Positions 12,718 through 39,879 of a stretch of DNA of 59,351 nt are shown here, one piece after another. Origin of the DNA: an uncultured Candidatus Saccharibacteria bacterium (GTDB lineage: Bacteria; Patescibacteriota; Saccharimonadia; CAZHVB01); assembly GCA_964600295.1 (NCBI GenBank), contig CAZRIY010000003.1:1-59351 (forward strand). The letters are read 5' to 3'. The notes beneath the pieces are model-generated. The model was not told the DNA's origin and made no database searches. It worked only from the letters and a program-made list of their open reading frames with translations. The first letter of the stretch is position 1. Each line of letters begins with the position of its first letter. Position numbers and translations under genes: made by a program.

Positions 12718-12718
12718 G

Positions 12719-21424: not shown

Positions 21425-21519
21425 CAGAGGTCTCTCTAATTACGATTGGCGTGATTTTATTGCAGCTGTATGTAGGGCGCACCGGAAGAGTTTGGTCTAA
21501 TGACACCCAGTCATGGATA

Positions 21520-21548
21520 TTGACAAAGCGTGGGAAATTTTTTAGACT
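21520..21548 (+). promoter_or_regulatory. candidate sigma70-type promoter (TTGACA-17 nt-TAGACT)
   Basis: TTGACA at 21520-21525 and TAGACT at 21543-21548 in an ORF-poor gap. Confidence 0.3.
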
Positions 21549-21555
21549 AGAAATT

Positions 21556-22056: not shown

Positions 22057-22128
22057 AAGGAGTAGTCATATCGTCTAGCCCCTTCGTAAGCGACTGATTA
22101 ATTTCGGTCATTTACGAGGGGAAACATT

Positions 22129-23419: not shown

Positions 23420-23512
23420 ACGTACAACCCAAACCGCTTATGGTATTTCGCAACAATGCTTTACATTTGTCAACCGATATAGTATTTTCTAGACATACCA
23501 GGGGGTTTGGTA

Positions 23513-23851: not shown

Positions 23852-23858
23852 ACAAGAA

Positions 23859-25121
23859 ATGATGCACGCCACCGCCCACCTTTTCGGCGCGGCGGATGTG
23901 TCAGCCGCTGGCAACGCCATGCAGCAGTTTGTGGCGCCAATCATGTTAACCCTGGCCGGGTTGGCCGCTCTGGTCTGCGTCTTTTTCCTGGTCACGGCCG
24001 GCTACTCATACATCACCAGCACCGGCAAGCCAGAAAAACTCGAGCACGCGAAAAAGGTATTGCGCAACGCCATAGTCGGGCTAATCATCGTGATTGCCGC
24101 GGGTACGCTGACCAGCATTCTGAACCACGCCTACAAAGGTCCTAGTACCTCTGATGTTGCAAATTTACCGCCCCTGACCGCAGTCGAGCCCGAAGACAGC
24201 GGTGGTATCGTCGACATCTTGGTCAAGGGCATTGTCGGCCTGTTCAAACATATTATTGAATCTGCAGCCAAACCGTTTATTGCCGCGCTGGACTACTTCA
24301 CAAAGGCCACGCCGCTGATGGGTGAAAACTCGGCCGTATTTAAGTTGTGGCTGACTTTGGTTGGCATCGCCGATGCCTTGTTTGTGCTGGTGGTGGGCCT
24401 GATCGGGTTTCATGTCATGAGCGCGGCCTCCCTAGGTTTAGATGAAATTGAATTCAAGCACCTGCTGCCGCGACTGGCCATGACGTTTCTATTGATGAAT
24501 ACTTCAATCTTCGCCATCGACGCGGTTATTTCCCTGTCCAACGGCATGATCAGCGCCCTGGTAGCGAGTTTCAACAATAAATCAGTTTGGGATGCCCTAT
24601 CAACGATCACTTCTCAAGCAGGTGGTCTGGGGCTAGTAGCGCTGATGATTATGGTGGTGTTCCTGATACTATCCGTGATTCTGCTGGTCTATTACGTCAT
24701 GCGCCTAGTGGTGCTTTATCTGGGCGCAATCCTGTCACCGCTGGTGGTATTGCTGGCCCTGGTGCCAGGCTTCAAAGACTTCGCCAATACCGCAATCAAA
24801 TCCTATTTGACTACGGTATTTGTGCTGTTCGTGCATGTGGTCATCCTGATGCTGGCGGCTTCAATCTTTAGTGGATTAGTTAAGGGTGATGGGCAACAAG
24901 CCTTTGATCCAATTCTAGGGACATTGGTTGGTGTAGCCACCCTGGTCACTTTGCTGAAGACCCAGGGCATGATGATGCAAATGTCATATGTCAGCGTCGG
25001 CCCCAGAGCTCTGCGCAAACTGGGCAGTCAATTCATGACTGGGGTTAGCTACACCACCACCAAGATAAAGACCGTCCGGGCTACCGCCCAGGGCGCACGC
25101 AACGTCAGGCCTGCCAAATGA
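23859..25121 (+). CDS. pilin-like N-terminal domain fused to a polytopic VirB6/TrbL-like membrane protein
   Basis: Residues ~20-100 are paralogous to the preceding pilin (LAGLAALVCVFFLVTAGYSYITSTGKPEKLEHAKKVLRNAIVGLIIVIAAG). The remainder has more than 6 TM helices. Confidence 0.7.
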   Translation: MMHATAHLFGAADVSAAGNAMQQFVAPIMLTLAGLAALVCVFFLVTAGYSYITSTGKPEKLEHAKKVLRNAIVGLIIVIAAGTLTSILNHAYKGPSTSDVANLPPLTAVEPEDSGGIVDILVKGIVGLFKHIIESAAKPFIAALDYFTKATPLMGENSAVFKLWLTLVGIADALFVLVVGLIGFHVMSAASLGLDEIEFKHLLPRLAMTFLLMNTSIFAIDAVISLSNGMISALVASFNNKSVWDALSTITSQAGGLGLVALMIMVVFLILSVILLVYYVMRLVVLYLGAILSPLVVLLALVPGFKDFANTAIKSYLTTVFVLFVHVVILMLAASIFSGLVKGDGQQAFDPILGTLVGVATLVTLLKTQGMMMQMSYVSVGPRALRKLGSQFMTGVSYTTTKIKTVRATAQGARNVRPAK

Positions 25122-25636
25122 AGACCGCCATCGTTCCGGCCCAAGTTACTACAGTCGAGGACAAAGTCGCCGGCAATCTGAGCTTCACCCAACTTCTGCT
25201 CTTAACAGCTCCGGTCTTCTTGGATGGTGCAGTGATCGTCTTGATTCCGCCATTCTTGAAAATTACTCCATTCAAGCTGGTATTCGCCATTGTCTTTGCC
25301 TTTATTTGTGTAAGTTTAGCCATCCGCATTAAGGGCAGACTACTGCTGCAATGGTTGGTTATTCTAGCTAAATACAGACTGCGACCAGGGCTCTACGTAT
25401 ACAACAAGAACGATAAACATCTGCGAAAACCATCAAACGAGTCATTCCGGCAAACTACCATTCCAGTCGAAGCGCGTGCCGATAAGTTAAGCTCTCCGCC
25501 AAGCCAACTGATTCCCACGTCGGAAATGGTACGCCTGGAATCGGCCGTAGCCAACCCAGATGCTAGGTTTCACCTCAAAGCAACTAAGGGAGGACTGCGT
25601 GTCTATATTCGCGAAGTCAAAGAAAAAAGACTCTAG
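25118..25636 (+). CDS. PrgI/VirB3-like small T4SS membrane protein
   Basis: VEDKVAGNLSFTQLLLLTAPVFL is followed by two TM helices. The gene sits directly upstream of VirB4. Confidence 0.55.
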   Translation: MKTAIVPAQVTTVEDKVAGNLSFTQLLLLTAPVFLDGAVIVLIPPFLKITPFKLVFAIVFAFICVSLAIRIKGRLLLQWLVILAKYRLRPGLYVYNKNDKHLRKPSNESFRQTTIPVEARADKLSSPPSQLIPTSEMVRLESAVANPDARFHLKATKGGLRVYIREVKEKRL

Positions 25637-26210
25637 TCGCCGTCAAATAGACATCAAAGGTGTGAGCGACGGCGTCTTATTGCTACCCAACCACCACTAC
25701 CGAGCGATCTTGCAGGTTTCCTCGATAAATTTTGAGCTAAAGAGCGAAGCCGAGCAGGATGCGCTGATCGACACCTACCAGAGTTTTCTAAACTCTCTGT
25801 CTACCCCGCTGCAGATTGTGGCCCGGATTCGAGAAATGGACATGGATAAATACTTGGAGGAGTTCCGATCTAGGCTCAAACAGGAGCCAGAAGCAATTTA
25901 TCGGGCGCAAGTTGCCAACTACACCGAGTTCGTCAGTAGCCTGATATCCAGCAATAAGATACTGTCCAGAAACTTCTATGTAATTGTCCCCTTCAACGGC
26001 AAAGAACCGGACTTTGAAGTCGTTAAGGAGCAGTTGGCCCTAACCTTGGATATCGTCTCCAAAGGTCTAGCTCGCCTCGGCATGCATTCACGCCAGCTCA
26101 GCTCTTTGGAGATACTCGACCTGTTTTACAGCTTCTACAGCCCGGTTCAGGCCAAGCGCCAGCCATTGTCCCACCAGGCCATGCAACTACTAACGGAATC
26201 CTACCGATGA
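25599..26210 (+). CDS. VirB4/PrgJ-like N-terminal domain encoded as a separate ORF
   Basis: IDIKGVSDGVLLLPNHHYRAILQVSSINFELKSEAEQDALIDTYQSFLNSL is the typical VirB4 N-terminus. The GTG at 25599 follows AAGGGAGGA. ATGA overlap with the next ORF. Confidence 0.7.
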   Translation: MSIFAKSKKKDSSRRQIDIKGVSDGVLLLPNHHYRAILQVSSINFELKSEAEQDALIDTYQSFLNSLSTPLQIVARIREMDMDKYLEEFRSRLKQEPEAIYRAQVANYTEFVSSLISSNKILSRNFYVIVPFNGKEPDFEVVKEQLALTLDIVSKGLARLGMHSRQLSSLEILDLFYSFYSPVQAKRQPLSHQAMQLLTESYR

Positions 26211-27955
26211 ATATTTCCTTGCTGGAAAAGCCCGTCACGAAACTACGGGCCATCAAATCGCGTCGGGGCGAGCGCCCCAGGGAGCTTGCACTTAGCTTCG
26301 GCGAACAAGATCCGATGGATGTCATTTCTTACGCCGGCCTCGAAGAACAGTCAGCTCATCTAGTGATTGACGGCCGCTACGTGCGTTCGCTATTCATCTC
26401 CGGATACCCGTTTGTCGCCAGCTCAGGCTGGCTTAATAGCCTGATTAATTTCAACCACGATGCAGATATTTCATACCACTTGGGCAGTGTAGATGCCAAC
26501 CAAGCATTACCTAAGCTGCACCGCAAAATTACTGAGCTGGAATCCACCAAGCGAGCGATGATGAGGGCCGGCAAGATCATCGGTCCCGAGCTCACCGATC
26601 CATTGGAATCAGCCATCGGCTTAAGGGACAAAATCCAGCGGGGCCAAGAGAAACTCTTTCAGGTATCAATTTACGTAACCCTGACGGCCGACAACTTGGC
26701 GGAGCTAGACAAGATGACCAAATTACTCGAAACCGCGCTGTCTGCCAGGTTGTTTTTCAGCAAAGTCGCCCGTTACCAGCAGCTGGAAGGCTTGCAGTCC
26801 GTATTGCCGCGGGGAGAGGACATCTTGAACCAACGACGAAACTTGGACAGCTCCTCGGTGGCGTTGACCTTCCCCTTCATGAGTTCCGAACTGGTACAGG
26901 AGACCGGCATACTCTACGGCGTTAATAAATCGAATAATTCGCTGGTAATTCTCGACCGCTTCAGCCTGCACAATGCCAACAGCATCGTCTTCGCCCAATC
27001 CGGCGCTGGCAAGAGCTATGCCACCAAAGTCGAGATTCTGCGCCAGTTGATGCAAGGTACTAAAGTCATAGTCATAGATCCGGAACGCGAATATAAGCTG
27101 CTTAGCAAATCGGTAAACGGAACATATATCAAACTGTCGGCTCGCTCAAGCGAAAAACTTAATCCTTTTGACCTTTCAGTAACTTCCCGCGCCAAGTCCG
27201 ATCTGTCCGAACACACCCAGGACTTGATAGAAGTTATCTCACTGATGGCCGAGGGATTGAGCGCCCGCGAGAAGGCGGCCGTCGACAAAGCAATTCTGTA
27301 TCTCTATAAACAGCCCGGGCAGACTCCGCTATTGGAAGACTTATATCGAGTATTACTTAAGCTCAAACATACCAAGCTATGCGAACGGCTGGAAAAATAT
27401 ATCACGGGATCATTGGCCGGAGTATTTAACGCCCACACCAACATCAAGTTGGATAACCGCTTGGTGATTTTTGATATTAAGGACCTGCCGGAGAGCCTGC
27501 GCCAGATCATGATGATGATCATCTCCAATTTCGTCCAGAACCGGGTCAAAGCCCGCCCGGAAAAACGGCTTTTAGTAATTGACGAGGGCTGGCTGCTGCT
27601 CGAGCACGAGGAAAGCGCCCGCTTTGTGGCCGGCCTGGTGCGGCGAGCCCGTAAGTATTACCTGGGAGTGTCGATCATCTCCCAGCAAGCCAACGATTTC
27701 CTTAAAAACGACTACGGCCGAGCCATAGCCTCGCAAAGCAGCTTGCGGATTTTAATGCGTCAGGACACGACTACGATCAAGAACGTGGTGGCCGAATTCC
27801 ACCTCAGCGAATACGAGCAGAACTTCCTGCTGACCTGCGAAAAGGGGGATGCCCTGATTATCGCCGACCAAAATCACGTAGCGGTCAAAGTCGTGGCCTC
27901 GGACAAGGAACATCCGCTCATTACCACTAATCCTGCCGAGCTCTATCATCTATGA
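26207..27955 (+). CDS. virB4: VirB4-like T4SS ATPase (C-terminal ATPase part)
   Basis: Walker A AQSGAGKSYATK and Walker B LLVIDEGWLLL; 582 aa. Confidence 0.9.
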   Translation: MNISLLEKPVTKLRAIKSRRGERPRELALSFGEQDPMDVISYAGLEEQSAHLVIDGRYVRSLFISGYPFVASSGWLNSLINFNHDADISYHLGSVDANQALPKLHRKITELESTKRAMMRAGKIIGPELTDPLESAIGLRDKIQRGQEKLFQVSIYVTLTADNLAELDKMTKLLETALSARLFFSKVARYQQLEGLQSVLPRGEDILNQRRNLDSSSVALTFPFMSSELVQETGILYGVNKSNNSLVILDRFSLHNANSIVFAQSGAGKSYATKVEILRQLMQGTKVIVIDPEREYKLLSKSVNGTYIKLSARSSEKLNPFDLSVTSRAKSDLSEHTQDLIEVISLMAEGLSAREKAAVDKAILYLYKQPGQTPLLEDLYRVLLKLKHTKLCERLEKYITGSLAGVFNAHTNIKLDNRLVIFDIKDLPESLRQIMMMIISNFVQNRVKARPEKRLLVIDEGWLLLEHEESARFVAGLVRRARKYYLGVSIISQQANDFLKNDYGRAIASQSSLRILMRQDTTTIKNVVAEFHLSEYEQNFLLTCEKGDALIIADQNHVAVKVVASDKEHPLITTNPAELYHL

Positions 27956-28590
27956 ATCTGGTCTGGCCACTATTCAGATTATTTAAGACTGAGATCAAGA
28001 TAGTCCTGGCCTCCCTGGCCGTACTGATAGCGCTGCCGGTGGTTTCGTTGGCGGTGTTTGCGAGCGCCGGCTCAGACATTGTCGGCAAGGCGCTAGCCAA
28101 TCCCGTACCTGGCGGCCAGGCAGTCGAGTTGTTAGACCCGGACGGCAACGTGGTAGCCCAGCAGGAGAAATCCAGCGTCTGGCCGGTGCGAGGGATTGTG
28201 ACCGACGAATTTGGGGTACCCCGCAAGCACGGCATCCACCACGGCATTGATATTGCCAATGAATACGGATTGAGCGGAGACCCAGTTACAGTCTTTAGAA
28301 CAGGCCGAGTAACCAAGGTTGATGACCGAGGCTGGGGCGATTGCGGCCAATTCGTCAGAGTTAACCACGGCGACAACGTCACCTCGATGTACTGCCACCT
28401 TTCGGCGATTTTCGCTGCCGAGGGCGATGAAGTCGAGCCTGGCAAGATTATCGGCCTGGAAGGAAGCACCGGGGAATCCAGCGGCCCCCACCTCCACTTT
28501 CAGATCAGCGTTTACGACGTGCCGGTCAACCCGCGCAATTTTATGATCGGGGAGCCGGAAAGGAATCTGCCAAATGGCGGAGTTTATTAG
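27952..28590 (+). CDS. M23 (LytM) peptidase, T4SS-associated cell-wall hydrolase
   Basis: HHGIDIA ... GSTGESSGPHLHFQI, with an N-terminal TM segment. Confidence 0.9.
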   Translation: MNLVWPLFRLFKTEIKIVLASLAVLIALPVVSLAVFASAGSDIVGKALANPVPGGQAVELLDPDGNVVAQQEKSSVWPVRGIVTDEFGVPRKHGIHHGIDIANEYGLSGDPVTVFRTGRVTKVDDRGWGDCGQFVRVNHGDNVTSMYCHLSAIFAAEGDEVEPGKIIGLEGSTGESSGPHLHFQISVYDVPVNPRNFMIGEPERNLPNGGVY

Positions 28591-31195
28591 CTGGCTCGAC
28601 TGGCTTGCTTCGATAGTACCGACAATAGCGGTGATTATTACGATGGTCGCACTGACACTAATAACTATTTGGATTCTGGCGCGGATACTGCGCTTTTACG
28701 GCTGGATCCGCCAAGAGGCAGTTTACCTGGAGCTAACGCCTCCTTCACGGACTGATCGAGCGTCTCAAGCCACCCAGCAACTCTTCGCGGCCTTGCACGG
28801 AATGGGGATGTCACGTCGCTGGCGCGACCGGCTGCTAATGCGGCAGAGTCTGTTTGCTTTCGAAATTGTTTCCACCAAGTCCGAGGGGATTCGATTCTTG
28901 GTGCGCATCAGCCGCGAAGATGCCGGCACGCTTGAACGCACCATCGCCGCCTACCTGCCGGAAGTTAAGGTGGCCAGTGTAAATGAGCAAATCAAACTAA
29001 ACCCGAGCAAAAAGTCCCGCATAGTAGAGTTTAGGCAGAAACAACATTTCGCTTTCCCGCTACAAAATCACGAAACCCTGGAGATTGAGGATCCGATAGC
29101 CTACATTACTAGCGCAATGACCAAGCTGGCGCCGAGTGAGCGAATGGTCTATCAGATGGTCGTGACACCTGTGCACGTCCCTCAAGCCGATACTTTAAGC
29201 CATAAAATCCTCAGCAACGAGGACCTGCTGCCAAGGCTCAAAGGCAACCGCTCATACGCATCGCCGATCACGACCGCTATCAACTCGCTGTTGTTTGGTC
29301 TAATCGGCGCTGTCGGAAATCTGGTTCACGGTCCCTCCAAAAGCGATTATCGTTCGGCTCAAAAAGACTTGGAGTATCAGAAACAAGTTGCCAAGCGGCT
29401 GAAGCCGGCCAGAACGCTAAGTTATTTTGAGCACGAATTGGTTGAATCAATCCATCAGAAGCTCGCAGAACCCTTGTTCAGGGTTGAACTGCGGGTACTG
29501 CTCGACTGCGCGGACAAGCAGGAAATCCTACAACGCCAGAAAAGCCTGGAATCGGCGCTAAGTTTGTTCAACGTGCCCCGATACCAGGGCCTGACGCGCA
29601 AAGGAAGATGTTACGGCTGGTTCAGGACCTACCAGAATTTCAGGTTCGCCCATCGTCTACCTGCGGTCCTCCGATCAGCAAACCTGCTGGCAGCCACCGA
29701 ATTGTCGGGTCTGTTCCACTTTCCGCATTCGGTCACTGCTAAGACTGAAAACGTAATCAAATCCTTGAGCAAAACCCTGCCGGCTCCGGTGTCGCTGAAA
29801 AACGACGGTAAGCTGGACGTGCTGCTGGGCGAAAATCAACACCAAGGTACAACTACCACCATCGGGTTGGCCGCTTCCGAGCGTGAACGTCATATCTATA
29901 TCCTGGGAGGGACGGGTAATGGTAAAACCACTATGTTGCGGTACGGGATTGTCCAGGATATCAAAAACGGCAAAGGCCTAGCGGTGATAGACCCGCATGG
30001 TGACCTCGCCGCTTCGATTTTGCGCCACATTCCACAAGATCGTATAAACGACGTCATTTATTTGAATCCGGATGATGTCACCCACCCCATAGGGCTAAAC
30101 TTGCTGGAACTGCCTCAAGGCCTGAGCGCGGATGACTTATTGCGCGAGAAAGACTTAGTAACTGAAGCTACTATCTCCGTCATGCGTAAGCTTTTCTCCG
30201 ACGATGACTCCGGTGGCCACCGCATCGAATACGTCTTGCGAAACGCTATTCAAACAGCTTTGACTATTGAAGACGCTACTCTGTTTACAATTTTCGAATT
30301 ACTCAATGACACCAAGTATCGGCAGGCAATTACGCGAAATCTGGAAGACAAATATCTCAAGAATTTCTGGCGCAACGAACTGGGCAAAGCCGGCACATTC
30401 CAAAAAGTTAAGATGGCTGCCGGTATTACCGCTAAGATCGGGCGGTTTCTATTTTCCGCGTCGGCAAAACGAATACTCGAGCAACCAAAGTCCACTATCG
30501 ATTTTGACGATATTCTCAATTCTGGAAAAATTCTAATTTGTAATTTTTCCAAAGGACTGCTCGGCGAGGATACTTCAACTTTATTTGGTACCACAGTGCT
30601 CGCCAAGCTACAGCTGGCTTCACTCAGGCGCGCCCGCCTGGACGAGCATAATCGTCAACCTTTTTACCTCTACGTTGATGAGTTTCAAAACTTCGCCACG
30701 ATGGCGTTCGTGCAAATGCTATCGGAAGCTCGTAAATACAGACTATTCCTGACATTGGCCGAGCAGTCAGCCGCCCAACAGGAAGAGCAGAAATTGGTGG
30801 AAATTATCCTAGCCAACGTTGGCACGATAATTTGCTTCCGGTCGGGTAGCCCGGCAGATGAGCGGTTGGTCTTACCTTTGTTCAAACCCTTCCTTGAGAG
30901 CGGAGAGATCGCCAACTTGCCCGCATATAACTTCTACATGCGCATAGCGGCACTCCAAGCCCAAGAACCAATGTCGGGTGTAACAGTCCTGTTAAAGGAC
31001 GATGGGAGTGAAAATATTGCAAAAGAGGTTATATCAGCATCGCGCAGAAACCATGCTATAAGATTTAGACCAAAAACCGAGAATAAGCGGCCGGTAGCGC
31101 GCGTTACTACAGGCGAAACCGAGGTTAAACGGGCTGGCGCTAGCGGCGGCCTGCAACCAGCCTTGCGTCATCCCAAGCCCGCTCCAAAGCCCTAA
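28574..31195 (+). CDS. type IV coupling protein (VirD4/TraD/TraG-like ATPase) with large N-terminal domain
   Basis: N-terminal TM segment, Walker A GGTGNGKTT and Walker B YLYVDEFQNF; 873 aa. Confidence 0.85.
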   Translation: MAEFISWLDWLASIVPTIAVIITMVALTLITIWILARILRFYGWIRQEAVYLELTPPSRTDRASQATQQLFAALHGMGMSRRWRDRLLMRQSLFAFEIVSTKSEGIRFLVRISREDAGTLERTIAAYLPEVKVASVNEQIKLNPSKKSRIVEFRQKQHFAFPLQNHETLEIEDPIAYITSAMTKLAPSERMVYQMVVTPVHVPQADTLSHKILSNEDLLPRLKGNRSYASPITTAINSLLFGLIGAVGNLVHGPSKSDYRSAQKDLEYQKQVAKRLKPARTLSYFEHELVESIHQKLAEPLFRVELRVLLDCADKQEILQRQKSLESALSLFNVPRYQGLTRKGRCYGWFRTYQNFRFAHRLPAVLRSANLLAATELSGLFHFPHSVTAKTENVIKSLSKTLPAPVSLKNDGKLDVLLGENQHQGTTTTIGLAASERERHIYILGGTGNGKTTMLRYGIVQDIKNGKGLAVIDPHGDLAASILRHIPQDRINDVIYLNPDDVTHPIGLNLLELPQGLSADDLLREKDLVTEATISVMRKLFSDDDSGGHRIEYVLRNAIQTALTIEDATLFTIFELLNDTKYRQAITRNLEDKYLKNFWRNELGKAGTFQKVKMAAGITAKIGRFLFSASAKRILEQPKSTIDFDDILNSGKILICNFSKGLLGEDTSTLFGTTVLAKLQLASLRRARLDEHNRQPFYLYVDEFQNFATMAFVQMLSEARKYRLFLTLAEQSAAQQEEQKLVEIILANVGTIICFRSGSPADERLVLPLFKPFLESGEIANLPAYNFYMRIAALQAQEPMSGVTVLLKDDGSENIAKEVISASRRNHAIRFRPKTENKRPVARVTTGETEVKRAGASGGLQPALRHPKPAPKP

Positions 31196-31248
31196 TTTAG
31201 CGCACTATATGGAAAGCAGCCTCAGTCAGTAATCTCTGAATGCGAGTT

Positions 31249-32499
31249 TTATACGGTGTCCAATGTAAGCCAGTTGTCTGTTGGCGACTTTTGTTTACTC
31301 GCTAATTCCGCCTTATCACTGCGCCGTTCTTGTTCCCAGTTAATCCGTTCCGATACCCATTGTGGATTAGAATAATTATTTACACTCTCTTGAGTAGACT
31401 GCATTCTTGAGTCAATATCCTCCAAAGCCTTTTGGCGCTCTGCGCCTTCAAGCTTATTATTAACGATTACTCTATAGCGTTGAAGTACCCCTAGGTTCGC
31501 TTTTATAATTTCGAGGTTGTTCGCATAATCGTCAGCGGTTTTATCGGGGTTATATTTGCCATACCTGCCAGCTAAATCAATCGGCACCGAGGCCCAGCCG
31601 ACCACTTGACCAAGCTCCTGATCAGCAGTGGTTTTCCCAGCCACCTTTGAAGAATGAAAGTCTACTATGCCAAAACCAGCTTCTGGATCGTAAAAGAAGT
31701 TTGAGGGTTTGGGATCAATTTCGATACCTTTTTGATGTGCGGTAACTAGGGTGTCTACCAATTCGCTAAGTTGATGGTCAGTTATTTGCTTAATTTCATC
31801 AACCGTGAGGTTGCCCATCTCTTTACCTGGCATCATTTCGGCAACCGTAACTCCATCTTCGTAAGACGCAGCTACAATCTGCTCCAAGTGAGGGATGCCC
31901 TTACCTAAAACTGCGCCTGCAAGATGGGAATCAATTGCTTTTGGGTTTGCAGCTTTGCCCCCCGGAACTCTAACCGCATATTCTTTTCCCTCATGACTGA
32001 TAGAGAAAGCCATTGCGTTAGAGCCGCCGCCGATAAGTGCGGGGTGTTTGCTCCGAGTAGCGGGGTCTTCCAGCTCAGTCCTCAACCTATTAATCACAGG
32101 TGCGAATTCTCCATACGATTTAAGCATTTCGGCACGCCTCTGTATGCTTTCATAACGAGCACCCCCGACAGAGCGTAGAAACTTAAGGTAGTCGCCCGCT
32201 GTGGCTACCGACCTTTCTGTACCTTCTTCTAATTTAAGCGGTTTACCGCTTTCATCCCTATGGTATTCTCTACGATCTGTAACTCTTGTTACGTCCTCCA
32301 CGCCCTTGATCGCCAAATTGCCGAGATTATTGAAAAGGTGGCGTCGGTCTTCAAAATCTTCGACTCGCTCTGCCGCAAAAGCAGCTATCTGAGCTTGCGT
32401 AACTTCGGGGTGCTTGGATTCTTGTATATCTGGTACGTTTTGGGCTCGCATGAGATGCTCTGCAACAGCTTGATCGATTTGTTCGATTTCTTCGGCCAT
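31249..32499 (-). CDS. protein-kinase-like fold protein with shared N-terminal MAEEIEQIDQAVA motif
   Basis: Gly-rich loop LIGGGSNAMAF, then YAVRV, a catalytic-loop-like GIEIDPKPSNFFY and a DFG-like GIVDFHSS. Confidence 0.6.
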   Translation of the reverse strand: MAEEIEQIDQAVAEHLMRAQNVPDIQESKHPEVTQAQIAAFAAERVEDFEDRRHLFNNLGNLAIKGVEDVTRVTDRREYHRDESGKPLKLEEGTERSVATAGDYLKFLRSVGGARYESIQRRAEMLKSYGEFAPVINRLRTELEDPATRSKHPALIGGGSNAMAFSISHEGKEYAVRVPGGKAANPKAIDSHLAGAVLGKGIPHLEQIVAASYEDGVTVAEMMPGKEMGNLTVDEIKQITDHQLSELVDTLVTAHQKGIEIDPKPSNFFYDPEAGFGIVDFHSSKVAGKTTADQELGQVVGWASVPIDLAGRYGKYNPDKTADDYANNLEIIKANLGVLQRYRVIVNNKLEGAERQKALEDIDSRMQSTQESVNNYSNPQWVSERINWEQERRSDKAELASKQKSPTDNWLTLDTV

Positions 32500-32508
32500 G
32501 TTATTCGT

Positions 32509-33912
32509 TTAGGCTGCTTTGAGCTGCTGCATGTCTGAACGTATTGCAGCTAACTTTTCACGAAGTTTTTCTAAGTCTGGCTCGCGGAATACCTCAACTG
32601 CATTTTTCTTTTTTTCAAGTATACTCAGCTCTATTCGGTCTTTGCCGTAGTGACCAATAAATTTTCCGACGCTTGTGAAGAACCCTGACCCCTTTAAGTA
32701 TTTGTCTTGTCTAAGCTTTCCTGCCTCGTCGATTATGACTGTGAGGTTTATGGGTTCATCGGTTTTTTGAGCGCCAACTTGATCAGCGGTTTCTTCTGCC
32801 GGCTTAGGTAGTGTGAGGTAATCGACAGTTATACTTTGAGAGTACTTCAGATTCAATGATACTGTGATTCTCTCATCGTAAACCCCAAATCTACCGGTAC
32901 CGGGGTTATGAACAAAAGTATATTCATATGGCATGTTGTCATAATAATGGTCGTTTTTGGTCAACATGCCCTCGTATTGCCAACCCTTTGAACCGACGCC
33001 TTCACCTGGAGTCAGACTTTCAAGTGCCTTGGCCTCCACTATTTCCAAAAATCCGTCGTGAACTTCCTTGGCTCCGGGCAGCTCCTTGCCCTTTTTAATA
33101 GCTTGCCACTCCGCAAATTTTTCTTGTTCAGCAATATGAGCGCGTTCCCGATTGGCAGCCAGCTTTATGGCGTCCTCATCGCCAGCCTTTACTTTTTCAT
33201 CAAGGTACAACAAGCCATGAAGTTTGTCTTGAATCTGCTCTAATTCGTCGAGCTCGTCAACCTCTTCTTGGTCAGAGTCATAGTTGCGGTATTCATAATC
33301 TGCTATTTTCCAATCTTCATGGTCCATACCTCCAGCTTCAGGATGAGGCCGAGGACCGGGGTGCGAAGGCTTAAACCCGGATGATCCTAGCTTTCTGATA
33401 GACTCTATACGAGTTTGAGAAGCACCTAACGAAGATTGTGCTTCGGCTATGTTTCGTGCAAGGTAGTTCGCCGCAAGTGTGTTTTGCTCATTCTCGGCGT
33501 GAATCTCATTAAGGCTTTTCATGCTCTCGTTGGCCTTGGGCAGACCTTCCTTCCATTCGGCATCTTCTTCCTCGTCTATTTCACCTTCGAAAGCAAGTGG
33601 ATGTTCATCTGGATCTAATGGAAGGTCATCTCCCTCATTGTAGAGCACGCCGGGTTTGCGGCCGGTGGCTTCTTCCCAAAAGCCAGGGTCTTCTGAACCA
33701 TCCGCTTCGGGATCTTCACCTTCGCCAATAGGAAGACCACCCCGCAATTTCTGTTCTTTAAGATCTTCGCGCTTCTCCCAGGCCTCATACTCATCGTCAG
33801 CGCTTTCAGCTACCGGTTTGGCATTAGCTATACCACCGGTGCTAAGAGTGCTTGGCTTTGATTTCGCTGAGCCTGCAACAGCCTGATCAATGTCTTCGAT
33901 TTCTTCGCCCAT
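32509..33912 (-). CDS. acidic hypothetical protein with shared N-terminal MGEEIEDIDQAVA motif
   Basis: 467 aa and very Asp/Glu-rich in the N-terminal half. A 9-nt gap separates it from the downstream kinase-like gene. Confidence 0.5.
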   Translation of the reverse strand: MGEEIEDIDQAVAGSAKSKPSTLSTGGIANAKPVAESADDEYEAWEKREDLKEQKLRGGLPIGEGEDPEADGSEDPGFWEEATGRKPGVLYNEGDDLPLDPDEHPLAFEGEIDEEEDAEWKEGLPKANESMKSLNEIHAENEQNTLAANYLARNIAEAQSSLGASQTRIESIRKLGSSGFKPSHPGPRPHPEAGGMDHEDWKIADYEYRNYDSDQEEVDELDELEQIQDKLHGLLYLDEKVKAGDEDAIKLAANRERAHIAEQEKFAEWQAIKKGKELPGAKEVHDGFLEIVEAKALESLTPGEGVGSKGWQYEGMLTKNDHYYDNMPYEYTFVHNPGTGRFGVYDERITVSLNLKYSQSITVDYLTLPKPAEETADQVGAQKTDEPINLTVIIDEAGKLRQDKYLKGSGFFTSVGKFIGHYGKDRIELSILEKKKNAVEVFREPDLEKLREKLAAIRSDMQQLKAA

Positions 33913-34026
33913 TTTTATACTTTATTTAATGATTTTTGTTTTATTTGGAGAATATGTACAAATTATAGAACCAGGGGTGCGATTTTGCAAGGGTACTTCG
34001 ATGCAAACCGACCAGATCAGGACTGC

Positions 34027-34635
34027 TCAACTCTTTTGCGCTACGAATCTCAACCACATATCGTCAGAATCTGCATAAACCACATCAAATCCTTTAGAAA
34101 CAAGGAGGTCTTTAAAGGGCGCCTGCTCCCAATAGGAGAAGTAGCGTGGCATTCCTAGCCGTCTCTCTGTCCAACTTTCACCTTTGCCCTTACTAACGCT
34201 AACCGAGAAAATACCCTTTTCCTTAAGTGCCGCGTGGATTTTCGTCACTGCCTCTGACACTTGATCGCGGGTGAGGTGCTGCAGCACAGCCGAACAAAAG
34301 ATAAGGTCATACTCTTTTTTTATAGCGTCAGTGACAATGTTCAGTACTCGAGCCTTTCTCCCGGCGTCTAATAAACGGCGCACAAGGGATTCGGCCGCGT
34401 CTGTCAGCTCAATGTTATAGCCATGAGATTCTATATACTCTGCGTCAGATCCTGACCCGCTACCTATCTCCAAAATCTTACCTTTGATTGGAACTTGTCT
34501 TAGCGAAGCGTCAATCCAGCGTTTTACCTGGGGGCTTCCTCGGTTCGTTGGAGCGTCTAGATACTCCTCTGGCCGCTCATTGTATGCACGAACAGTTATA
34601 GCGTTGGGATCTTCGTTTGAACTATGCTTTGCCAT
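34027..34635 (-). CDS. class I SAM-dependent methyltransferase
   Basis: Motif I ILEIGSGSGSDAEYI. Confidence 0.85.
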   Translation of the reverse strand: MAKHSSNEDPNAITVRAYNERPEEYLDAPTNRGSPQVKRWIDASLRQVPIKGKILEIGSGSGSDAEYIESHGYNIELTDAAESLVRRLLDAGRKARVLNIVTDAIKKEYDLIFCSAVLQHLTRDQVSEAVTKIHAALKEKGIFSVSVSKGKGESWTERRLGMPRYFSYWEQAPFKDLLVSKGFDVVYADSDDMWLRFVAQKS

Positions 34636-34710
34636 GCTTAAAGCGTAACAAATAATATCACTAGTTGGCTGGTTGGCTCCCGGTAGTGGAGAAAGTTAGG
34701 ATCATTAAAA

Positions 34711-35064
34711 TTAGCACATGGATAAACAAGCGCTTACTAAATCACCCTTGCCCACATTCAGGCGGCTCGTTAATAGGCCTGCAAACGATTTTTGTTGCCC
34801 GTCCTCAATCGGGCTGCTTGAGCGCACGGCCACGTATTTATTACCCAGTTTTTTACAGGCGGCGAATAAGTGATCAGCAAAGCTGGGGGCGGCTCTTAGA
34901 CCGTGCTTCAGGGCTTGTCTGTGGGCGGAAGTGGTAATTATAAATCCAGACGGAAGTTGAATACCCTTAAGTCTAGATAATAGGGCAAGTTTTAGGGCCT
35001 TCGCGCCTACCAGCGACCGCTGATTGTCTTTGATCTCGCTCAGCCAAATTATCTCATTTTTCAT
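34711..35064 (-). pseudogene. fragment of a PEP-utilising enzyme N-terminal (PPDK_N / ATP-grasp) domain
   Basis: The 117-aa sequence LVGAKALKLALLSRLKGIQLPSGFIITT matches the start of proteins that are normally about 800 aa (PEP synthase / rifampin phosphotransferase type). The remainder is missing. Confidence 0.55.
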
Positions 35065-35085
35065 AACTGGGCAAGTAGAGTCTAA

Positions 35086-35541
35086 CTATATATGCTTCTT
35101 GTAATGGAGCCAGGTGGGCGGAGCTTCTTTGAACCCTACCATATCATAGAATTGTTGGGCCGAACTGTTATTCTTGGCTACGTCGAGCATTACGGTTCTA
35201 ACTCCTTGGCTTCTTAACCAATCTATACATTGTTTTATTAACTTCCCAGCCCATCCTTGTCGACGGTATTTTGGCGACACATAGAGATCATATATCCAGC
35301 CTTCACCCACCACATTGCCGGTTTGAGCCATTGCGAACCCTACAATTCGGCTCTCATGCTCAAGCACGTATCCTTGGTGTTGAGGCTTAAACCACATTGG
35401 CAAATAGTTGCGGGCTTGAGTTTCTAGACCTTTTTCATCAACTTCTTTCTTATTAAGTTCAACGTTATGGTAACGATCTGAATCGATCAATAAGGGCAAA
35501 AGTCGTTCGGCGTCTTGCGGCTTAACTTTTCTAATCTGCAT
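35086..35541 (-). CDS. GNAT-family N-acetyltransferase
   Basis: YRRQGWAGKLIKQCIDWL acetyl-CoA motif; 151 aa. Confidence 0.85.
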   Translation of the reverse strand: MQIRKVKPQDAERLLPLLIDSDRYHNVELNKKEVDEKGLETQARNYLPMWFKPQHQGYVLEHESRIVGFAMAQTGNVVGEGWIYDLYVSPKYRRQGWAGKLIKQCIDWLRSQGVRTVMLDVAKNNSSAQQFYDMVGFKEAPPTWLHYKKHI

Positions 35542-35789
35542 TATTCAAATCTCTATTTCTTTCCGTCTTGTACTATTACTATTTTACGGTCTGGCAGGGG
35601 TTAAGGTCCAACTATAGAACTTTAATAAACCCTGAGCCGAGTATAGCACCGGCCAACGTTCGTGAAGCATTCGTCAATTGAAACGAAAAACGGCCTGATG
35701 CATTATGGTTGCGCTTAACTCCAGTGCGAGTGTATAATATGCACATAAGTTCCAATCAAAAATAGAAAAAATTTAAAAAGGACCCATAA

Positions 35790-36533
35790 ATGAGCGAAGC
35801 AGAGCAAATTGATCAGGCTATGAAGGCCGCCTCTAATCCTGGAGATAGCTCTGAACACAATGCCCCTACCATCACCCCCAGCCCAGAAGAAGTAGTAGAT
35901 CAGGCTGCCAAATTACGCGGAGACATCGAACATCGCGAACGATCGCTCGAAGAAATAGACCGCGAGCAGGAAAATCCACAGCGGTATACCGCAGCAAAAA
36001 AACAATTTACTGAAGAGCTGCCCGGCTTAATTCAAAAGCAGCAGCAGCACGATGAAGAGGCCCGTACTTATGCCGAAGAAAATCTTCCGGAGCTTAAGGA
36101 ACAGGCCAAAGCTGTAATGGATAAGGATTTTGAGTTGCGGCAACGCGCATCGGAAGTATTTGATAAGATCATACCCTCGGCGCTAGTTGAGGCTGGCGTT
36201 CGTAAGGATGCGTTAGAACGGGTGACCAGCGCAAAATTGAACACTTCTAGCGGAATTAATGGAAACACAGGTTTTCCGGAATCTGTAACTTTTATTAGAT
36301 CTTTTAGAAACGGCAAACTCGCAGAGACCCGGCTGGCGATTGAGTCAAGCCGGACTGAATTACGAATTGGAGCCGATGGGCGGGTGCAGCTAGACGGATA
36401 CGGCCTGCACCCTGTAGAGGCAAGGCAACAAAAAATCGCTGAGGCTCTAAGTGATGCCGAGAATATCGCGAAAGCTTCAGTCGCAGAGGGAGTAGTACAA
36501 GTTAAATTTAGAGAATCGCAGCCCAGCGGTTAG
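35790..36533 (+). CDS. hypothetical protein with shared N-terminal MSEAEQIDQAM motif
   Basis: 247 aa with a helical, charged N-terminal half. The N-terminus aligns with those of 31249..32499 and 32509..33912. Confidence 0.5.
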   Translation: MSEAEQIDQAMKAASNPGDSSEHNAPTITPSPEEVVDQAAKLRGDIEHRERSLEEIDREQENPQRYTAAKKQFTEELPGLIQKQQQHDEEARTYAEENLPELKEQAKAVMDKDFELRQRASEVFDKIIPSALVEAGVRKDALERVTSAKLNTSSGINGNTGFPESVTFIRSFRNGKLAETRLAIESSRTELRIGADGRVQLDGYGLHPVEARQQKIAEALSDAENIAKASVAEGVVQVKFRESQPSG

Positions 36534-36538
36534 AACTG

Positions 36539-36922
36539 CTATAAATTTGTATCTAGGAACTGCTTAAGAGCTATGAGGTCTTGTGTTGTGTGATCATAAA
36601 AATATGATTTGATTCCAACCGCCTCAGCGCTTTATACTGCATCCGCATTATGCTCAAAATAAACTACATCTTCGGTTTTTAATCCATACTTATCAAGCAA
36701 AGTCTTATAATACGTAGGATCTGTTTTTTCTGGGTTGTGCTTAAGCGTGAATACTTCCCAGGGTGACTTATCCAAATTGAATTCCTTAAATTGCTCGTCG
36801 TTAGCGCCGGTTAGAACAAGCTTATTGTTTGGATATTGCTCGAGCAATTCATACATATCCTGAAAAACTGTTCCGTCTTTTAGAATTATCCCATCAATGG
36901 CATCTACGAGAATTGTTTTCAT
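36539..36922 (-). pseudogene. HAD-like hydrolase interrupted by an in-frame TAA
   Basis: ORF 36632..36922 (MKTILVDAIDGII...FEHNADAV) stops at a TAA. The same frame continues SAEAVGIKSYFYDHTTQDLIALKQFLDTNL to a TAG at 36539-36541. Confidence 0.5.
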
Positions 36923-36993
36923 AGCTAGATTGTACTAGATAACTTCATGCCTGGGCGATAAAAAAGTTTATTTCTTGAATTACGCTGGAGGAT

Positions 36994-37797
36994 TTATCGG
37001 ATAAGCGGTTTGAGCGATTCTGGCTCGTATACATCGCTCAAGATTGCGTCATCTTTACCGCTGATATCCTTTAAGGCCTTGGTGGTTGTCGTATATACCT
37101 CCAATTCTTCTGCATCGCTTTGGTCGAGGGCATACTCGGCATGCTTTTGAAGTCGCCGTTCCAGGGCCGGGGTTTCACAGACTAGCAGAATAGCCGGATA
37201 ATCGGTGCCCGTTTCATCCCAATCGCCAGATTCATAATGTTCAATATATTGCGAAATCCTGAGTTTAACTACAAAAAAGGGGGTGGCCGCTTTTATAAAC
37301 TCCAGCATATAGCTTTTGCTGTTGGAGGGCTCACCCTTGAACGTCAAATGGGCATCGGGCAACCGTTCGGGGAAGAAGTCGTACTGCGCCAGTTCACTTT
37401 TGGTGTAGAAACTCAATGTATCTCCGAAGACTCGAACCAAATTCACATACAACCGGAGTAGAAGCAAGGATTCCTCAATGAATACCGGGCCAGCTCGTTT
37501 GTCGTTACGGATGGCGTGGAGCACCGTGGGATTGAGACCGGGCATTGTTTTGAGTACGCTTAAGCCCTCCGACATTAAGTGGTAAGCAGCCGGCTTGCGG
37601 TTAATGCTGTCTAAGCCGCTATACCTGCGGCCTATATATTTTTGCTCAATCATATTCCTCAGTCTCGTATACATATAAATCGGAGACTTAAGGTCTTGAT
37701 ATTTAGCCAATAACTCGACAGTTCCAAACCTAAACTTGTACAAACTCAGCAACACCTGTTCTTGTGATGCATTCAATGGTCTTCTAAACTTCGGCAT
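36994..37797 (-). CDS. replication-relaxation family protein (candidate relaxase / mobilisation protein)
   Basis: N-terminal winged-helix-like segment LLSLYKFRFGTVELLAKY...RLRNMIEQKYI, followed by LPDAHLTF...YMLEFIKAAT...ISQYIEHY. Confidence 0.55.
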   Translation of the reverse strand: MPKFRRPLNASQEQVLLSLYKFRFGTVELLAKYQDLKSPIYMYTRLRNMIEQKYIGRRYSGLDSINRKPAAYHLMSEGLSVLKTMPGLNPTVLHAIRNDKRAGPVFIEESLLLLRLYVNLVRVFGDTLSFYTKSELAQYDFFPERLPDAHLTFKGEPSNSKSYMLEFIKAATPFFVVKLRISQYIEHYESGDWDETGTDYPAILLVCETPALERRLQKHAEYALDQSDAEELEVYTTTTKALKDISGKDDAILSDVYEPESLKPLIR

Positions 37798-37955
37798 AAT
37801 TCTAGCTCTTCCGCTATCCCCCAGCTATAACCTACTACTGTTCTCTACTATATACGTAGTATATATAAAAGGTAGACTATTATGGATAGATTACAGAGGC
37901 GTTTGTGTAACTTAATAGATAAATCGATTTCTCTATCAAAATACTTGGAAAAGAC

Positions 37956-37985
37956 TTGCATATATCCCAGCTGGGATAGTATAAT
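37956..37985 (+). promoter_or_regulatory. promoter (TTGCAT-18 nt-TATAAT) whose spacer is a perfect 16-bp palindrome (operator candidate)
   Basis: TTGCAT at 37956-37961 and TATAAT at 37980-37985. TATCCCAGCTGGGATA at 37963-37978. A related TCCCAGGGA lies near 38000. Confidence 0.5.
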
Positions 37986-38018
37986 GTAACCAGGAAACTT
38001 CCCAGGGAGGGTATCGCA

Positions 38019-38174
38019 GTGGGTAGGCCAAAGGGTTCCACCAACAAACCGAAACAACCACCAGAGGTACGGCTATCTGACAAACAAAAGCTAGCTATCA
38101 TTGCTGACCTCTTACTGGAGCTGGTTTACGAAACCCAGGTAAAAAAGCCACCAGGGGTGTATCATGCAACCTAG
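38019..38174 (+). CDS. small basic protein (51 aa, GRPKG AT-hook-like N-terminus), possible regulator or recombination directionality factor
   Basis: Not in the track (under 60 aa). The GTG at 38019 lies 8 nt after GGGAGG. Translation MGRPKGSTNKPKQPPEVRLSDKQKLAIIADLLLELVYETQVKKPPGVYHAT. It overlaps the recombinase ATG. Confidence 0.4.
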   Translation: MGRPKGSTNKPKQPPEVRLSDKQKLAIIADLLLELVYETQVKKPPGVYHAT

Positions 38175-39879
38175 CGCTGCCAGCCTGAACGGGGTAGCAG
38201 CCATCAGGGTCTCGACAACCAAACAAGGCACTGACGGCGACTCACCGGAGGCTCAAAAGGAGCAAATAGAAGGCTTTGCCAAAAACAAAAACATTACGAT
38301 TAAGAAGTTCTTTGTCTTTCTGGAGTCGGCCTCGAAGGATCAGCAGCCGATGCAAGAGGCAATAGATTATTGCAAAGAGCCTAAAAACGGTATTCAACTC
38401 TTTATCATTAAATCCATTGACCGTTTCACTCGTGGTGGTTCAGACTTCTATGGCCCGCTAAAGCGGCAACTAGAGCAACACCAGGTGGGCTTAATTGATA
38501 TCTATGGCATTATCAGCCCCAACAAGGTGAACACCCTAGAGCACCTGGGCTTTGAATATGGCTGGAGTGTTTATTCACCCTCACAAAAATCGGAAATCTT
38601 AGAAGCTGAGCGCTCTAAAGACGAATTAAGAGACATCATGAGCCGCATGATAGGCGCGGAGATCCGTTATACGCAAATGGGTTATTGGATGCGCCGTCCG
38701 CCTTATGGATTTGTGAGTCAGAAAATTGATACTCAAAACGGGAAAAGGACTATCTTAAAGCCCCACCCGATTGAATCGAAGTTAATAATTAAGGCCTTCG
38801 AACTCCGAGCTACTGGCCGCTATAGCGACCGCGAGATCGCCGCTAAACTCAATGCCCTGGGCTTCAAGACCCGAATGAAGTATATTCGCAGCAAATCCAA
38901 ACCCAGCCATGTGGTCAAGCAGACGGGCGGCAACCCCCTAACCGACAAACATCTTTGGCGGCTGATGCGTAATCCGATTTATGCCGGAGTCAATATCGAA
39001 AAATGGACGAACGGTCAGCCGGTACGCTGTATGTTTAAGGGTCTGGTGTCAATTGAACTCTTTAACCAGGCCAATAAAGGTAAGCGAATCATTAGTCAGC
39101 TGATTAACAATAAAATCGCCGTTTATGACCAGCCGGCTCCGGAGCATCTTAGCGACAAAGGTAAACGCAATTCTGATTTTCCTTACAAGAAATATGTCAT
39201 GTGTCCGCAATGCAATAAGCCACTGTCGGGCAGCGCTTCAAGGGGCAAGTCCGGTAAATACTATCCTGCCTATCACTGCAATAAGCGTGGCCACTATTTC
39301 CGCGTCACTAAACGAGATCTAGAAGACCGCGTGGCTGAATTTATTTCTGGCATAAAGATAGCTCCAGATAAGTTGGAGGAGCTATTTAAGGCTGTTGAGA
39401 AGGCCTGGGAACGCTCGAATGCCGAGTATCGCAATCAAGTGCTGAGCTTCAATAATCGTATTAGTGAGCTAGAGAATGTAGCGACGGAAACGAGTAAGAA
39501 GTTTAGATTACTTACTAGCGAGACGGCGATAAAATACATGGAACAGGACCTTATCCAAACCGAGAAGGAGATAAAAGACCTAACAGTCCAAAGGGATAAA
39601 CTTAGTCTTAAGCAGCCCATGGATTTCAGTAAGGTTAAGGCACGAGTGAAATACTTTGTCGAACACCTTGATGAATTACTACTAAAACAGATTGATCCGA
39701 TCAAAAAAGCCCAGTTTTTCGGACTTTTATTCAACAAGGCGCCCACATACGACGATTTAAAAGGTCGAACACCAAAAACGCCCCTTTTTACAGGGGTGAA
39801 TCCGGTCATTCAACTTGCAGCGTTTCCAAACTCTCGTTTGGTGACCCCAGCGGGAGTCGAACCCGCGTTGTCAGATTGA
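38164..39879 (+). CDS. large serine recombinase (integrase)
   Basis: Resolvase-type N-terminus AAIRVSTTKQ...IIKSIDRFTRG, a recombinase domain, a Cys-rich zinc ribbon CPQC...YHC and a coiled coil. The last 14 codons read into tRNA-Glu. Confidence 0.9.
   Translation: MQPSAASLNGVAAIRVSTTKQGTDGDSPEAQKEQIEGFAKNKNITIKKFFVFLESASKDQQPMQEAIDYCKEPKNGIQLFIIKSIDRFTRGGSDFYGPLKRQLEQHQVGLIDIYGIISPNKVNTLEHLGFEYGWSVYSPSQKSEILEAERSKDELRDIMSRMIGAEIRYTQMGYWMRRPPYGFVSQKIDTQNGKRTILKPHPIESKLIIKAFELRATGRYSDREIAAKLNALGFKTRMKYIRSKSKPSHVVKQTGGNPLTDKHLWRLMRNPIYAGVNIEKWTNGQPVRCMFKGLVSIELFNQANKGKRIISQLINNKIAVYDQPAPEHLSDKGKRNSDFPYKKYVMCPQCNKPLSGSASRGKSGKYYPAYHCNKRGHYFRVTKRDLEDRVAEFISGIKIAPDKLEELFKAVEKAWERSNAEYRNQVLSFNNRISELENVATETSKKFRLLTSETAIKYMEQDLIQTEKEIKDLTVQRDKLSLKQPMDFSKVKARVKYFVEHLDELLLKQIDPIKKAQFFGLLFNKAPTYDDLKGRTPKTPLFTGVNPVIQLAAFPNSRLVTPAGVEPALSD

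Follow-up and report, generated by a model that had tools for sequence, protein, structure and literature searches.

Three neighboring genes, here called P1, P2 and P3, were analyzed in a stretch of 59,351 nucleotides (the window) from an uncultured Candidatus Saccharibacteria bacterium (contig CAZRIY010000003.1). The genes encode otherwise unrelated proteins of one mobile element, and about 12 opening codons are common to them. We call this shared N-terminus the tag. The names of homologues placed the window in Saccharibacteria/Patescibacteria. The 3' end of a tRNA-Glu gene recurs as an exact 19-nt direct repeat at both ends of the element, and the GC content fell from ~0.52 to ~0.43 at its left boundary (~10 kb). 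An integrated element of ~29 kb was therefore delimited (Table 1). At its right end lies a large serine recombinase gene, whose open reading frame (ORF) overlaps the tRNA gene by 41 nt. The element also encodes a type IV secretion system (T4SS) of the Gram-positive type, with pilin/VirB6, PrgI, VirB4, an M23 hydrolase and a type IV coupling protein (T4CP). Of the features of an integrative and conjugative element (ICE), attachment (att) repeats at a tRNA, an integrase of the serine recombinase type and a T4SS for mating-pair formation, complete with T4CP, were present. The cargo stretch that separates the T4CP gene from the recombinase gene holds the tagged genes, together with genes for an S-adenosylmethionine (SAM) methyltransferase and a GNAT acetyltransferase and a PPDK_N fragment. 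P1 is convergent with the T4CP gene across a 53-nt gap.

One tag on three unrelated proteins

In a six-frame scan of the window, run strictly or with up to 3 substitutions, the tag motif occurred three times, each time immediately 3' of an ATG. The N-termini were also compared without bias, using the first 12 residues of every ORF of at least 60 aa in the window. P1/P2 (10/12) and P1/P3 (7/12) were the top two of 16,836 ORF pairs. An identical run of at least 6 residues was found only in the same two pairs among the 6,105 pairs of ORFs of at least 80 aa. The pattern [IVL]DQA had 4 sites in 22,112 ORF residues of the window, which were the three tags and a degenerate copy inside P3. As a positive control, the same unbiased scan of related Saccharibacteria loci gave the prepilin leader motif only. 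Chance similarity of the three N-termini was ruled out by these scans.

The proteins diverged completely after the tag. The common stretch was 11-13 residues only, and no similarity was found between P1, P2 and P3 once the tags were removed (shuffle z < 1; hhalign probability 0.2%). A decayed whole-gene duplication, as considered for P2 and P3, was ruled out because the protein bodies were unrelated. The tag itself was acidic and moderately amphipathic, with a net charge of -4 to -5, a hydrophobic moment (muH) of 0.46 and a mean hydrophobicity of ~0.1. A Sec, Tat or lipoprotein signal peptide was ruled out, since MAEEIEQIDQAVA is acidic and has no hydrophobic stretch.

In the case of P1, the AlphaFold model was of high confidence (predicted local distance difference test, pLDDT, 89.9), and the best Foldseek matches were protein kinases at probability 1.0. 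The tag formed a helix at aa 2-20 (pLDDT ~70-75), followed by a low-confidence linker at 21-30 and the kinase-like body from aa ~29-31. A profile search of P1 against PDB sequences gave nothing useful, so the kinase fold came from the fold search. The P1 family has more than 119 members across Saccharibacteria. The tag was missing from 119 of the 119 homologues examined, and a conserved feature of the P1 family was ruled out on this basis. The homologues start at about 'MSExTPKSPEV', which corresponds to P1 aa ~23-33, and the BLASTP alignments begin at P1 aa 29. Their neighbors were housekeeping or type IV pilus genes (gyrB, ychF, NDK, XerC) in eight distinct contexts from 11 loci. No T4CP gene adjoined a P1 homologue in the eight contexts, and no tag and no P2 or P3 homologue was found in the 11 loci (L097-L107). 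Three homologues carried other N-terminal extensions (P0080, P0047, P0016). They were set aside, since they lay in housekeeping contexts and their extensions were not common to neighboring genes.

A further P1 homologue (P0064, 581 aa) carried a fused TehB/SAM-methyltransferase domain. A methyltransferase of the same type is encoded at 34027-34635, just upstream of P2-P1 on the same strand. The fusion and this neighborhood hint at a functional link between the kinase-like family and the methyltransferase.

P2 consists of an acidic low-complexity extension that includes the tag (aa 1-130, isoelectric point 4.05) and a body (aa 131-467). It had one homologue (P0122, 48% identity) in 5.8 billion clustered sequences, and this homologue had no tag. 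Met1 of P0122 aligned to Met131 of P2; therefore, the tag and the acidic 130-aa region are an extension. P3 had no homologue in 5.8 billion clustered sequences or in 1.84 billion representatives (exhaustive phmmer). Its single-sequence model (mean pLDDT 70.7) showed a tag helix at 3-15, a disordered linker at 16-31, three long helices and a C-terminal beta domain, and the fold search gave no significant PDB match. In the models of both P1 and P3, the tag was an isolated helix followed by a low-confidence linker. The internal copy in P3 (SPEEVVDQAAK, aa 31-41; peptide profile match at aa 32-43) opens the first long helix of the model (helix 32-58).

The tag was then sought elsewhere. A back-translated EEIExIDQA pattern was scanned over 185,579 species genomes, JGI metagenomes and IMG/VR, and gave 46 genome, 49 metagenome and 2 viral matches. 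Nearly all were ORF-internal in unrelated phyla or antisense. None was at a credible gene start, and none resembled the window. The two viral matches were start-adjacent (L102, L103) and were rejected as antisense to an 800-aa RNA-virus-like ORF; two metagenome matches after a nearby Met (L080, L088) were rejected as lying inside longer ORFs. A P3-type pattern had no match in viral contigs, and nhmmer and hmmsearch profiles gave no further copy over 811 kb of sequence. Related elements were sought through the T4CP as well; viral contigs gave none, and the plasmid matches were proteins of just 22-26% identity. On the sequences searched, the tag is private to this element and does not represent a secretion signal conserved in Patescibacteria or in Gram-positive-type T4SS.

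A sequence-only reading of this locus had listed the three ORFs with these N-termini, and all were present. It had also described complete divergence after the tag, similarity of the first ~40 nt at the DNA level, a kinase-like fold of P1, an acidic P2, convergence with the T4CP gene and a T4SS-bearing integrated element, and these descriptions were borne out. P3 had been called helical; the helices were found in the model, and a beta domain was found in addition. The degenerate internal copy in P3 had escaped that reading.

Table 1. Coordinates of the element, the tagged genes and the copies of the repeat in the window
Feature	Position	Strand	Details
Integrated element	10866..39857		~29 kb; exact 19-nt direct repeat of tRNA-Glu 3' end at 10866-10884 and 39839-39857
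T4SS genes	23859-31195		pilin/VirB6, PrgI, VirB4, M23 hydrolase, T4CP
T4CP gene	28574-31195	+	873 aa
P1	31249-32499	-	416 aa; sequence start MAEEIEQIDQAVAEH; tag MAEEIEQIDQAVA
P2	32509-33912	-	467 aa; sequence start MGEEIEDIDQAVAGS; tag MGEEIEDIDQAVA
P3	35790-36533	+	247 aa; sequence start MSEAEQIDQAMKAAS; tag MSEAEQIDQAM
Tag copy at P1	32460..32511	-	codons 1-13 at 32499..32460 and 12 preceding nt, including the P2 stop TAA (32511-32509)
Tag copy at P2	33873..33912	-	codons 1-13, MGEEIEDIDQAVA
Tag copy at P3	35790..35822	+	MSEAEQIDQAM; one codon shorter than the P1 and P2 copies
Internal degenerate motif copy in P3	35880..35906	+	SPEEVVDQA, aa 31-39; repeat D6, 27 nt at 70%
P2 promoter-like site and A-rich leader	33913..33990	-	TTGCAA, 17 nt, TATAAT; -10 box 33967-33962; promoter scan 10/12
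P3 -10 box and leader	35733..35789	+	TATAAT 35733-35738; homologous to the P2 leader; Shine-Dalgarno-like AAGGA upstream of the ATG
Predicted RNA stem	32462..32530	-	last codons of P2 GCAGCAGCU pair with P1 tag codons 10-13 AGCUGUUGC
Large serine recombinase	38164-39879		right end of the element

DNA anatomy of the copies and their start sites

At the DNA level, P1 and P2 were identical at 35/40 positions over +1..+40 (E 2e-6), and the repeat could also be described as 52 nt at 81% (repeat D1). Outside it, identity was at the random level, with 9/40 downstream and 10/40 at -52..-13. Upstream similarity was weak only, with 7/12 in -12..-1. The spacer from the P2 stop to an in-frame Met17 of P1 (ATG 32451-32449) is 57 nt long, and the P1 copy takes up 49 nt of it. 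Met17 is near the start position of the homologues.

P2 and P3 are divergently oriented and gave a different picture. One continuous local alignment of ~97 nt ran from a TATAAT box through an A-rich leader to codon ~11, and included a common 12-nt run, ATTGATCAGGCT. The homology thus spanned the noncoding -10 box and leader, and the P2 segment from the -10 box to the ATG was homologous to the P3 leader. When upstream regions alone were compared, P2/P3 ranked 2 of the 496 upstream pairs in the window (shuffle p 0.0125). Identity was 76% in the coding part and 63% in the leader, and the difference was not significant (Fisher p 0.34). Since the homology spans noncoding DNA and the coding part is not significantly better conserved, the copied unit is a gene-start module and not the peptide-coding segment alone. 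All tag copies hold a short GATC-centred palindrome, TGATCA or ATCGAT.

The top upstream pair in the window was a separate case. The ORFs starting at 44852 (+) and 46692 (-) have upstream regions 44782-44851 and 46693-46762 (score 17 against a mean of 3.3), with a common promoter-like block GCTATAAT / GCTAGAAT ... TAATGTT..ACTAGA, and their N-termini were dissimilar.

We favor the reading that a short 5' gene-start module, of which the tag is the coding end, was copied within one element and joined in frame to each of three unrelated genes, and we give this an even chance of being right. It is preferred because the DNA homology includes noncoding DNA, and because the relatives of P1 and P2 have no tag and start further downstream. 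What was found is a bounded nucleotide homology, noncoding upstream homology in P2/P3 and a segment absent from the homologues of P1 and P2. The unit copied between P2 and P3 would comprise the -10 box, the A-rich leader, the ATG and ~11 codons (~97 nt). That copied between P2 and P1 would be essentially the ATG and 13 codons (40 nt, sharp edges), set in the short spacer after the P2 stop. The module may have arrived by illegitimate or short-homology recombination in a rearrangement-prone cargo region, where the PPDK_N fragment lies between copies. It would supply a promoter to P2 and P3 and a start site to all three genes. It may have been retained as a working promoter, as an unstructured translation start for the captured genes that does not depend on a Shine-Dalgarno (SD) sequence, or as both. 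As a by-product, the three proteins would share an acidic, amphipathic helix at the N-terminus, held on a flexible linker; this helix would be tolerated and could be a private handle.

On this reading, the origin is a commonplace one, a partial duplication of a 5' gene end or a capture of promoter and leader, with three uses of the same segment. It resembles such events in the sharp-edged nucleotide homology that includes a noncoding promoter and leader, in its absence from orthologues and restriction to one lineage, and in the in-frame N-terminal extensions on pre-existing families. However, the module was used three times within 4.6 kb and in both gene orientations, which is unlike the usual case. 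One copy also lies inside an operon right after a stop codon, and the peptide part occurs again inside P3. The sequence-only reading had named a shared translation-initiation or regulatory element as its alternative, and had held that a partial duplication of one 5' gene segment would speak against its own proposal. Both fit the data better than that proposal: the P2/P3 homology runs from the -10 box through the leader into the first ~11 codons, and the coding part is not significantly better conserved than the leader.

Start sites were also considered. SD signals were weak genome-wide, and choosing start codons by SD strength was rejected as uninformative. The candidate starts of P1 and P2 were not told apart by SD. 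In the case of P3, the SD of M1 was better than that of M11 (-5.3 vs -2.5 kcal/mol), and it was the sole decent SD among the tag starts. P1 and P3 may instead start at the in-frame M17 and M11, respectively. The start regions of P2 and P3 were unstructured (z +0.75 and +1.06), and a stem was predicted for the P1 copy only. It has 9 bp (-20.2 kcal/mol, z -2.5) and encloses the P2 stop and the P1 start. This prediction suggested translational coupling of P2 and P1. No Rfam match and no RNA fold common to the three copies was found. The reading frame of P2 continues into that of P1 after only TAA and three codons (32497-32511), and read-through of this one stop would yield a P2-P1 fusion protein.

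Several points weigh against a module kept for its gene start. The 130-codon extension of P2 reads without a stop and shows coding-type periodicity, while stop codons abound in its other two frames. In P2 at least, the tag is therefore very probably translated, and translation from the P2 tag ATG is very likely. The core E-[QD]-I-D-Q-A differs between the copies mostly synonymously (GAA/GAG, ATC/ATT, CAA/CAG). The frame is kept in each of the three copies, and the length difference of the P3 copy is exactly one codon. The second motif copy, inside P3, is unable to act as a start site. The benefit of the module for expression, in turn, is one that we infer. Taken together, the in-frame copies, the one-codon indel, the synonymous core changes and the internal P3 copy hint that the peptide is under some constraint, although three copies are too few for these hints to be statistically decisive.

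Rival readings and known systems

The first rival is an element-private docking or targeting signal, in which the helix would recruit the three cargo proteins to a common partner of the element, most attractively the 873-aa T4CP or an adaptor, for transfer through the T4SS. We consider this possible but unlikely. The tag is exactly N-terminal in all three proteins and was grafted as an extension onto pre-existing families. A predicted architecture of helix, flexible linker and folded body, with the muH and net charge given above, would suit such a role. The frame-preserving indel in P3 and the synonymous core differences point the same way, and the genes adjoin the T4CP gene. The coupling protein is adjacent, as for T4SS substrates, and a short helical tag could be read by the T4CP or an adaptor.

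The secretion system itself lends this reading some plausibility. T4SS are nearly universal in Patescibacteria, with no known substrate or signal, and most are without a relaxase and have a possible non-conjugative role; they are thought to move cargo other than conjugative DNA (PMC12102498). No relaxase family was found in Pfam scans of the ORFs scanned, with unannotated ORFs including those of 267 aa (36994-37797), 173 aa and 216 aa, and this agrees with the published picture (PMC12102498). An N-terminal alpha-helix can also serve as a T4SS signal, as in the case of NLuc, which is recognized through IcmSW in Legionella and is exceptional (PMC10100965). No adaptor of the IcmSW kind was identified.

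A further precedent is the capsid-targeting sequence (CTS) of phage T4, an N-terminal peptide of ~10 aa on the diverse internal, anti-restriction proteins of the phage (PMC3012670). As with the tag, a short N-terminal peptide is the sole common feature of unrelated mobile-element cargo, and the T4 proteins enter the next cell along with the DNA. However, the T4 CTS is conserved across T-even phages, depends on the scaffolding core for its action and is cleaved off by the prohead protease. No capsid, scaffold, protease or other structural phage gene was found among the element ORFs scanned, of which PHROGs covered part, and by inspection no LxE/IxE-type cleavage site follows the tag.

A docking signal also meets difficulties. 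The motif was found nowhere else in the sequences searched, including the 119 P1 homologues and the P2 homologue. The P1 family lies in housekeeping contexts, with no adjoining T4CP in the eight examined, which is unlike an effector. The homology reaches into the noncoding promoter and leader, although a signal in the peptide would not require shared DNA there, and conservation of the coding part does not significantly exceed that of the leader. Most known T4SS signals are found at the C-terminus or within the protein (charged C-terminal tails, XVIPCD, BID, relaxase TS domains), and they are often positively charged or hydrophobic. The tag is N-terminal, acidic and not conserved in the related proteins or genomes searched; it did not recur in other genomes or elements, and its position and chemistry are atypical.

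The sequence-only reading had proposed that the tag could be a signal of T4SS substrates or adaptors, or could mark polymorphic effectors, and had held that a motif confined to the element and unassociated with T4SS loci would speak against this. That is the outcome obtained here: there was no comparative support for either role, and the pattern scans gave background matches only. Its observation was correct, and its interpretation as a secretion signal is unsupported. A private duplication is preferred over a T4SS signal because the motif is confined to the element, noncoding DNA is shared and P1 belongs to a housekeeping-type family.

The second rival is a neutral recombination scar. Here, the first ~40-100 nt of one gene would have been copied along with the insertion or rearrangement of cargo, and peptide, RNA and DNA would have no function. 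We regard this as quite unlikely. In its favor, the sharp boundaries and high nucleotide identity of P1/P2 indicate a recent event, and the repeat is confined to a single element. The truncated PPDK_N fragment (34711-35064) shows decay of the cargo, and coding conservation was not significantly in excess of that of the leader. However, each of the three copies opens a long, intact ORF and keeps its frame, the older P2/P3 copy can still be recognized over ~97 nt, and the 130-codon extension of P2 stayed open. The module is also the only plausible promoter for P2 and P3, so its noncoding part is probably in use.

A stronger version of the docking signal is a long shot. The tag would be a private docking helix that marks a kinase-like enzyme, an acidic protein (which could mimic DNA or counter defence systems) and an orphan protein, so that the unusually long T4CP would recruit them for delivery through a relaxase-less T4SS into a recipient or host cell. 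If true, the helix would be a conjugative analogue of the T4 CTS and the first candidate substrate signal for Patescibacteria T4SS. A tag-reporter fusion would then be a direct handle on the cargo of these systems, an expectation that the present evidence does not justify.

A third rival is a nucleic-acid site acting in cis, such as an operator or a target of an antisense or small RNA or an RNA-binding protein, which would co-regulate the three genes. P1 and P3 might then be untranslated over the tag, with true starts at Met17 and Met11. In-frame Met codons do lie just past the tag in P1 and P3, and at the homologue start in P2 (M131), and the SD signals give no preference among the candidate starts of P1 and P2. 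The GATC-centred palindrome in all copies and the stable predicted stem of the P1 copy with the end of P2 would also be accounted for. We nevertheless judge it very improbable. No complementary sequence was found elsewhere in the window, and neither an Rfam match nor a common RNA fold was obtained. M1 of P3 has the better SD, the P2 extension is coding, and the P3 copy, at only ~76% identity with a 3-nt gap, would be a poor shared target for base pairing.

Least of all do we credit recombination sites, which seem barely believable. The modules of P2 and P3 form an inverted repeat around 33913-35789, a segment that contains both promoters, and those of P1 and P2 form a direct repeat, spaced 1,413 nt apart and in one reading frame. 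A large serine recombinase gene lies 1.6 kb from P3. Inversion of the 1.9-kb segment might thus swap promoters, P2 might be deleted or exchanged, and cassettes might be shuffled, perhaps by this recombinase. However, identity between the inverted repeats is only ~67-76%, with 12 nt as their perfect core, and integration at tRNA-Glu already explains the presence of the recombinase. A single contig allows no variant arrangement to be observed, and inversion would just swap two similar promoters.

Other known N-terminal signals were compared as well. Bacterial microcompartment (BMC) encapsulation peptides have a short amphipathic N-terminal helix and a poorly conserved linker on unrelated enzymes, and the tag resembles them in its amphipathic N-terminal helix and linker on unrelated proteins. 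No BMC shell-protein gene was found among the annotated window ORFs, which were the subset of ORFs scanned. The class III prepilin leader is likewise an N-terminal motif common to divergent neighboring proteins. Unlike that leader (G-F-T-[LI]-[IV]-E and a hydrophobic helix, universally conserved), the tag is acidic, non-hydrophobic and private. Trafficking domains of polymorphic toxins or effectors (LXG, MIX, RIX) are widespread N-terminal domains of tens to hundreds of residues, with variable C-terminal toxins and adjacent immunity genes. Such a domain was rejected, since only 11-13 residues are shared, there was no Pfam, PHROG or PADLOC match and the tag is not widespread. A polymorphic effector was also rejected for P1, whose body is that of a conserved kinase-like family in housekeeping contexts and not a variable toxin.

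The surrounding element and the meaning of the proposed module

The remainder of the element was surveyed. The T4CP matched phrog_5156, an unannotated PHROG family, nearly end to end (E 2e-63), and ~420 of its residues before the ATPase domain had no Pfam match. The T4SS lies here inside an att-bounded element, and the literature has most Patescibacteria T4SS as chromosomal. In the cargo stretch, a truncated 117-aa ORF (34711-35064) matched only the first ~140 positions of PPDK_N, of the phosphoenolpyruvate-utilising or rifampicin-phosphotransferase type. This remnant sits between the methyltransferase and GNAT genes, and it indicates rearrangement or decay in the cargo region.

Other cargo of the element comprised a Y-family polymerase, a SRAP peptidase and a retron-type reverse transcriptase. 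A defence island in the left arm (11048-18402) contained a phospholipase D (PLD)-like nuclease (11048-11533), a 2TM/Cap15 effector of a cyclic-oligonucleotide-based anti-phage signaling system (CBASS; 12112-12717) and a CD-NTase (12719-13603). It also held a type IIG/MmeI-like restriction-modification system split over 13729-16242 (T5orf172/GIY-YIG-like N-terminus), 16229-17746 and 17743-18402. The reverse transcriptase (PADLOC RT_VI, E 4.5e-67; 22129-23419 region) is directly upstream of the T4SS genes. A small ORF before it has an N-terminus that looked XRE-type helix-turn-helix-like by eye, and the ~0.7 kb at 21425-22128, which has no ORF of at least 120 aa, could hold a candidate msr/msd RNA. 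A diversity-generating retroelement acting on the tag was ruled out, since the reverse transcriptase is retron-type and the differences between the copies are not adenine-specific. Two copies of the Y-family polymerase (44% identical), each with a small upstream partner (40% identical), were found at 18672-20196 and 40017-41587. The element contains one of the two pairs, and the second lies in the chromosome just beyond its edge, beside tRNA-Glu.

A duplicated gene-start module at P1, P2 and P3 would be a small example of how cargo genes of a mobile element gain working starts, with one promoter-leader-start segment reused three times. By this reuse, a housekeeping-type kinase-like gene and two near-orphans would have become co-expressed proteins with a common N-terminal helix.

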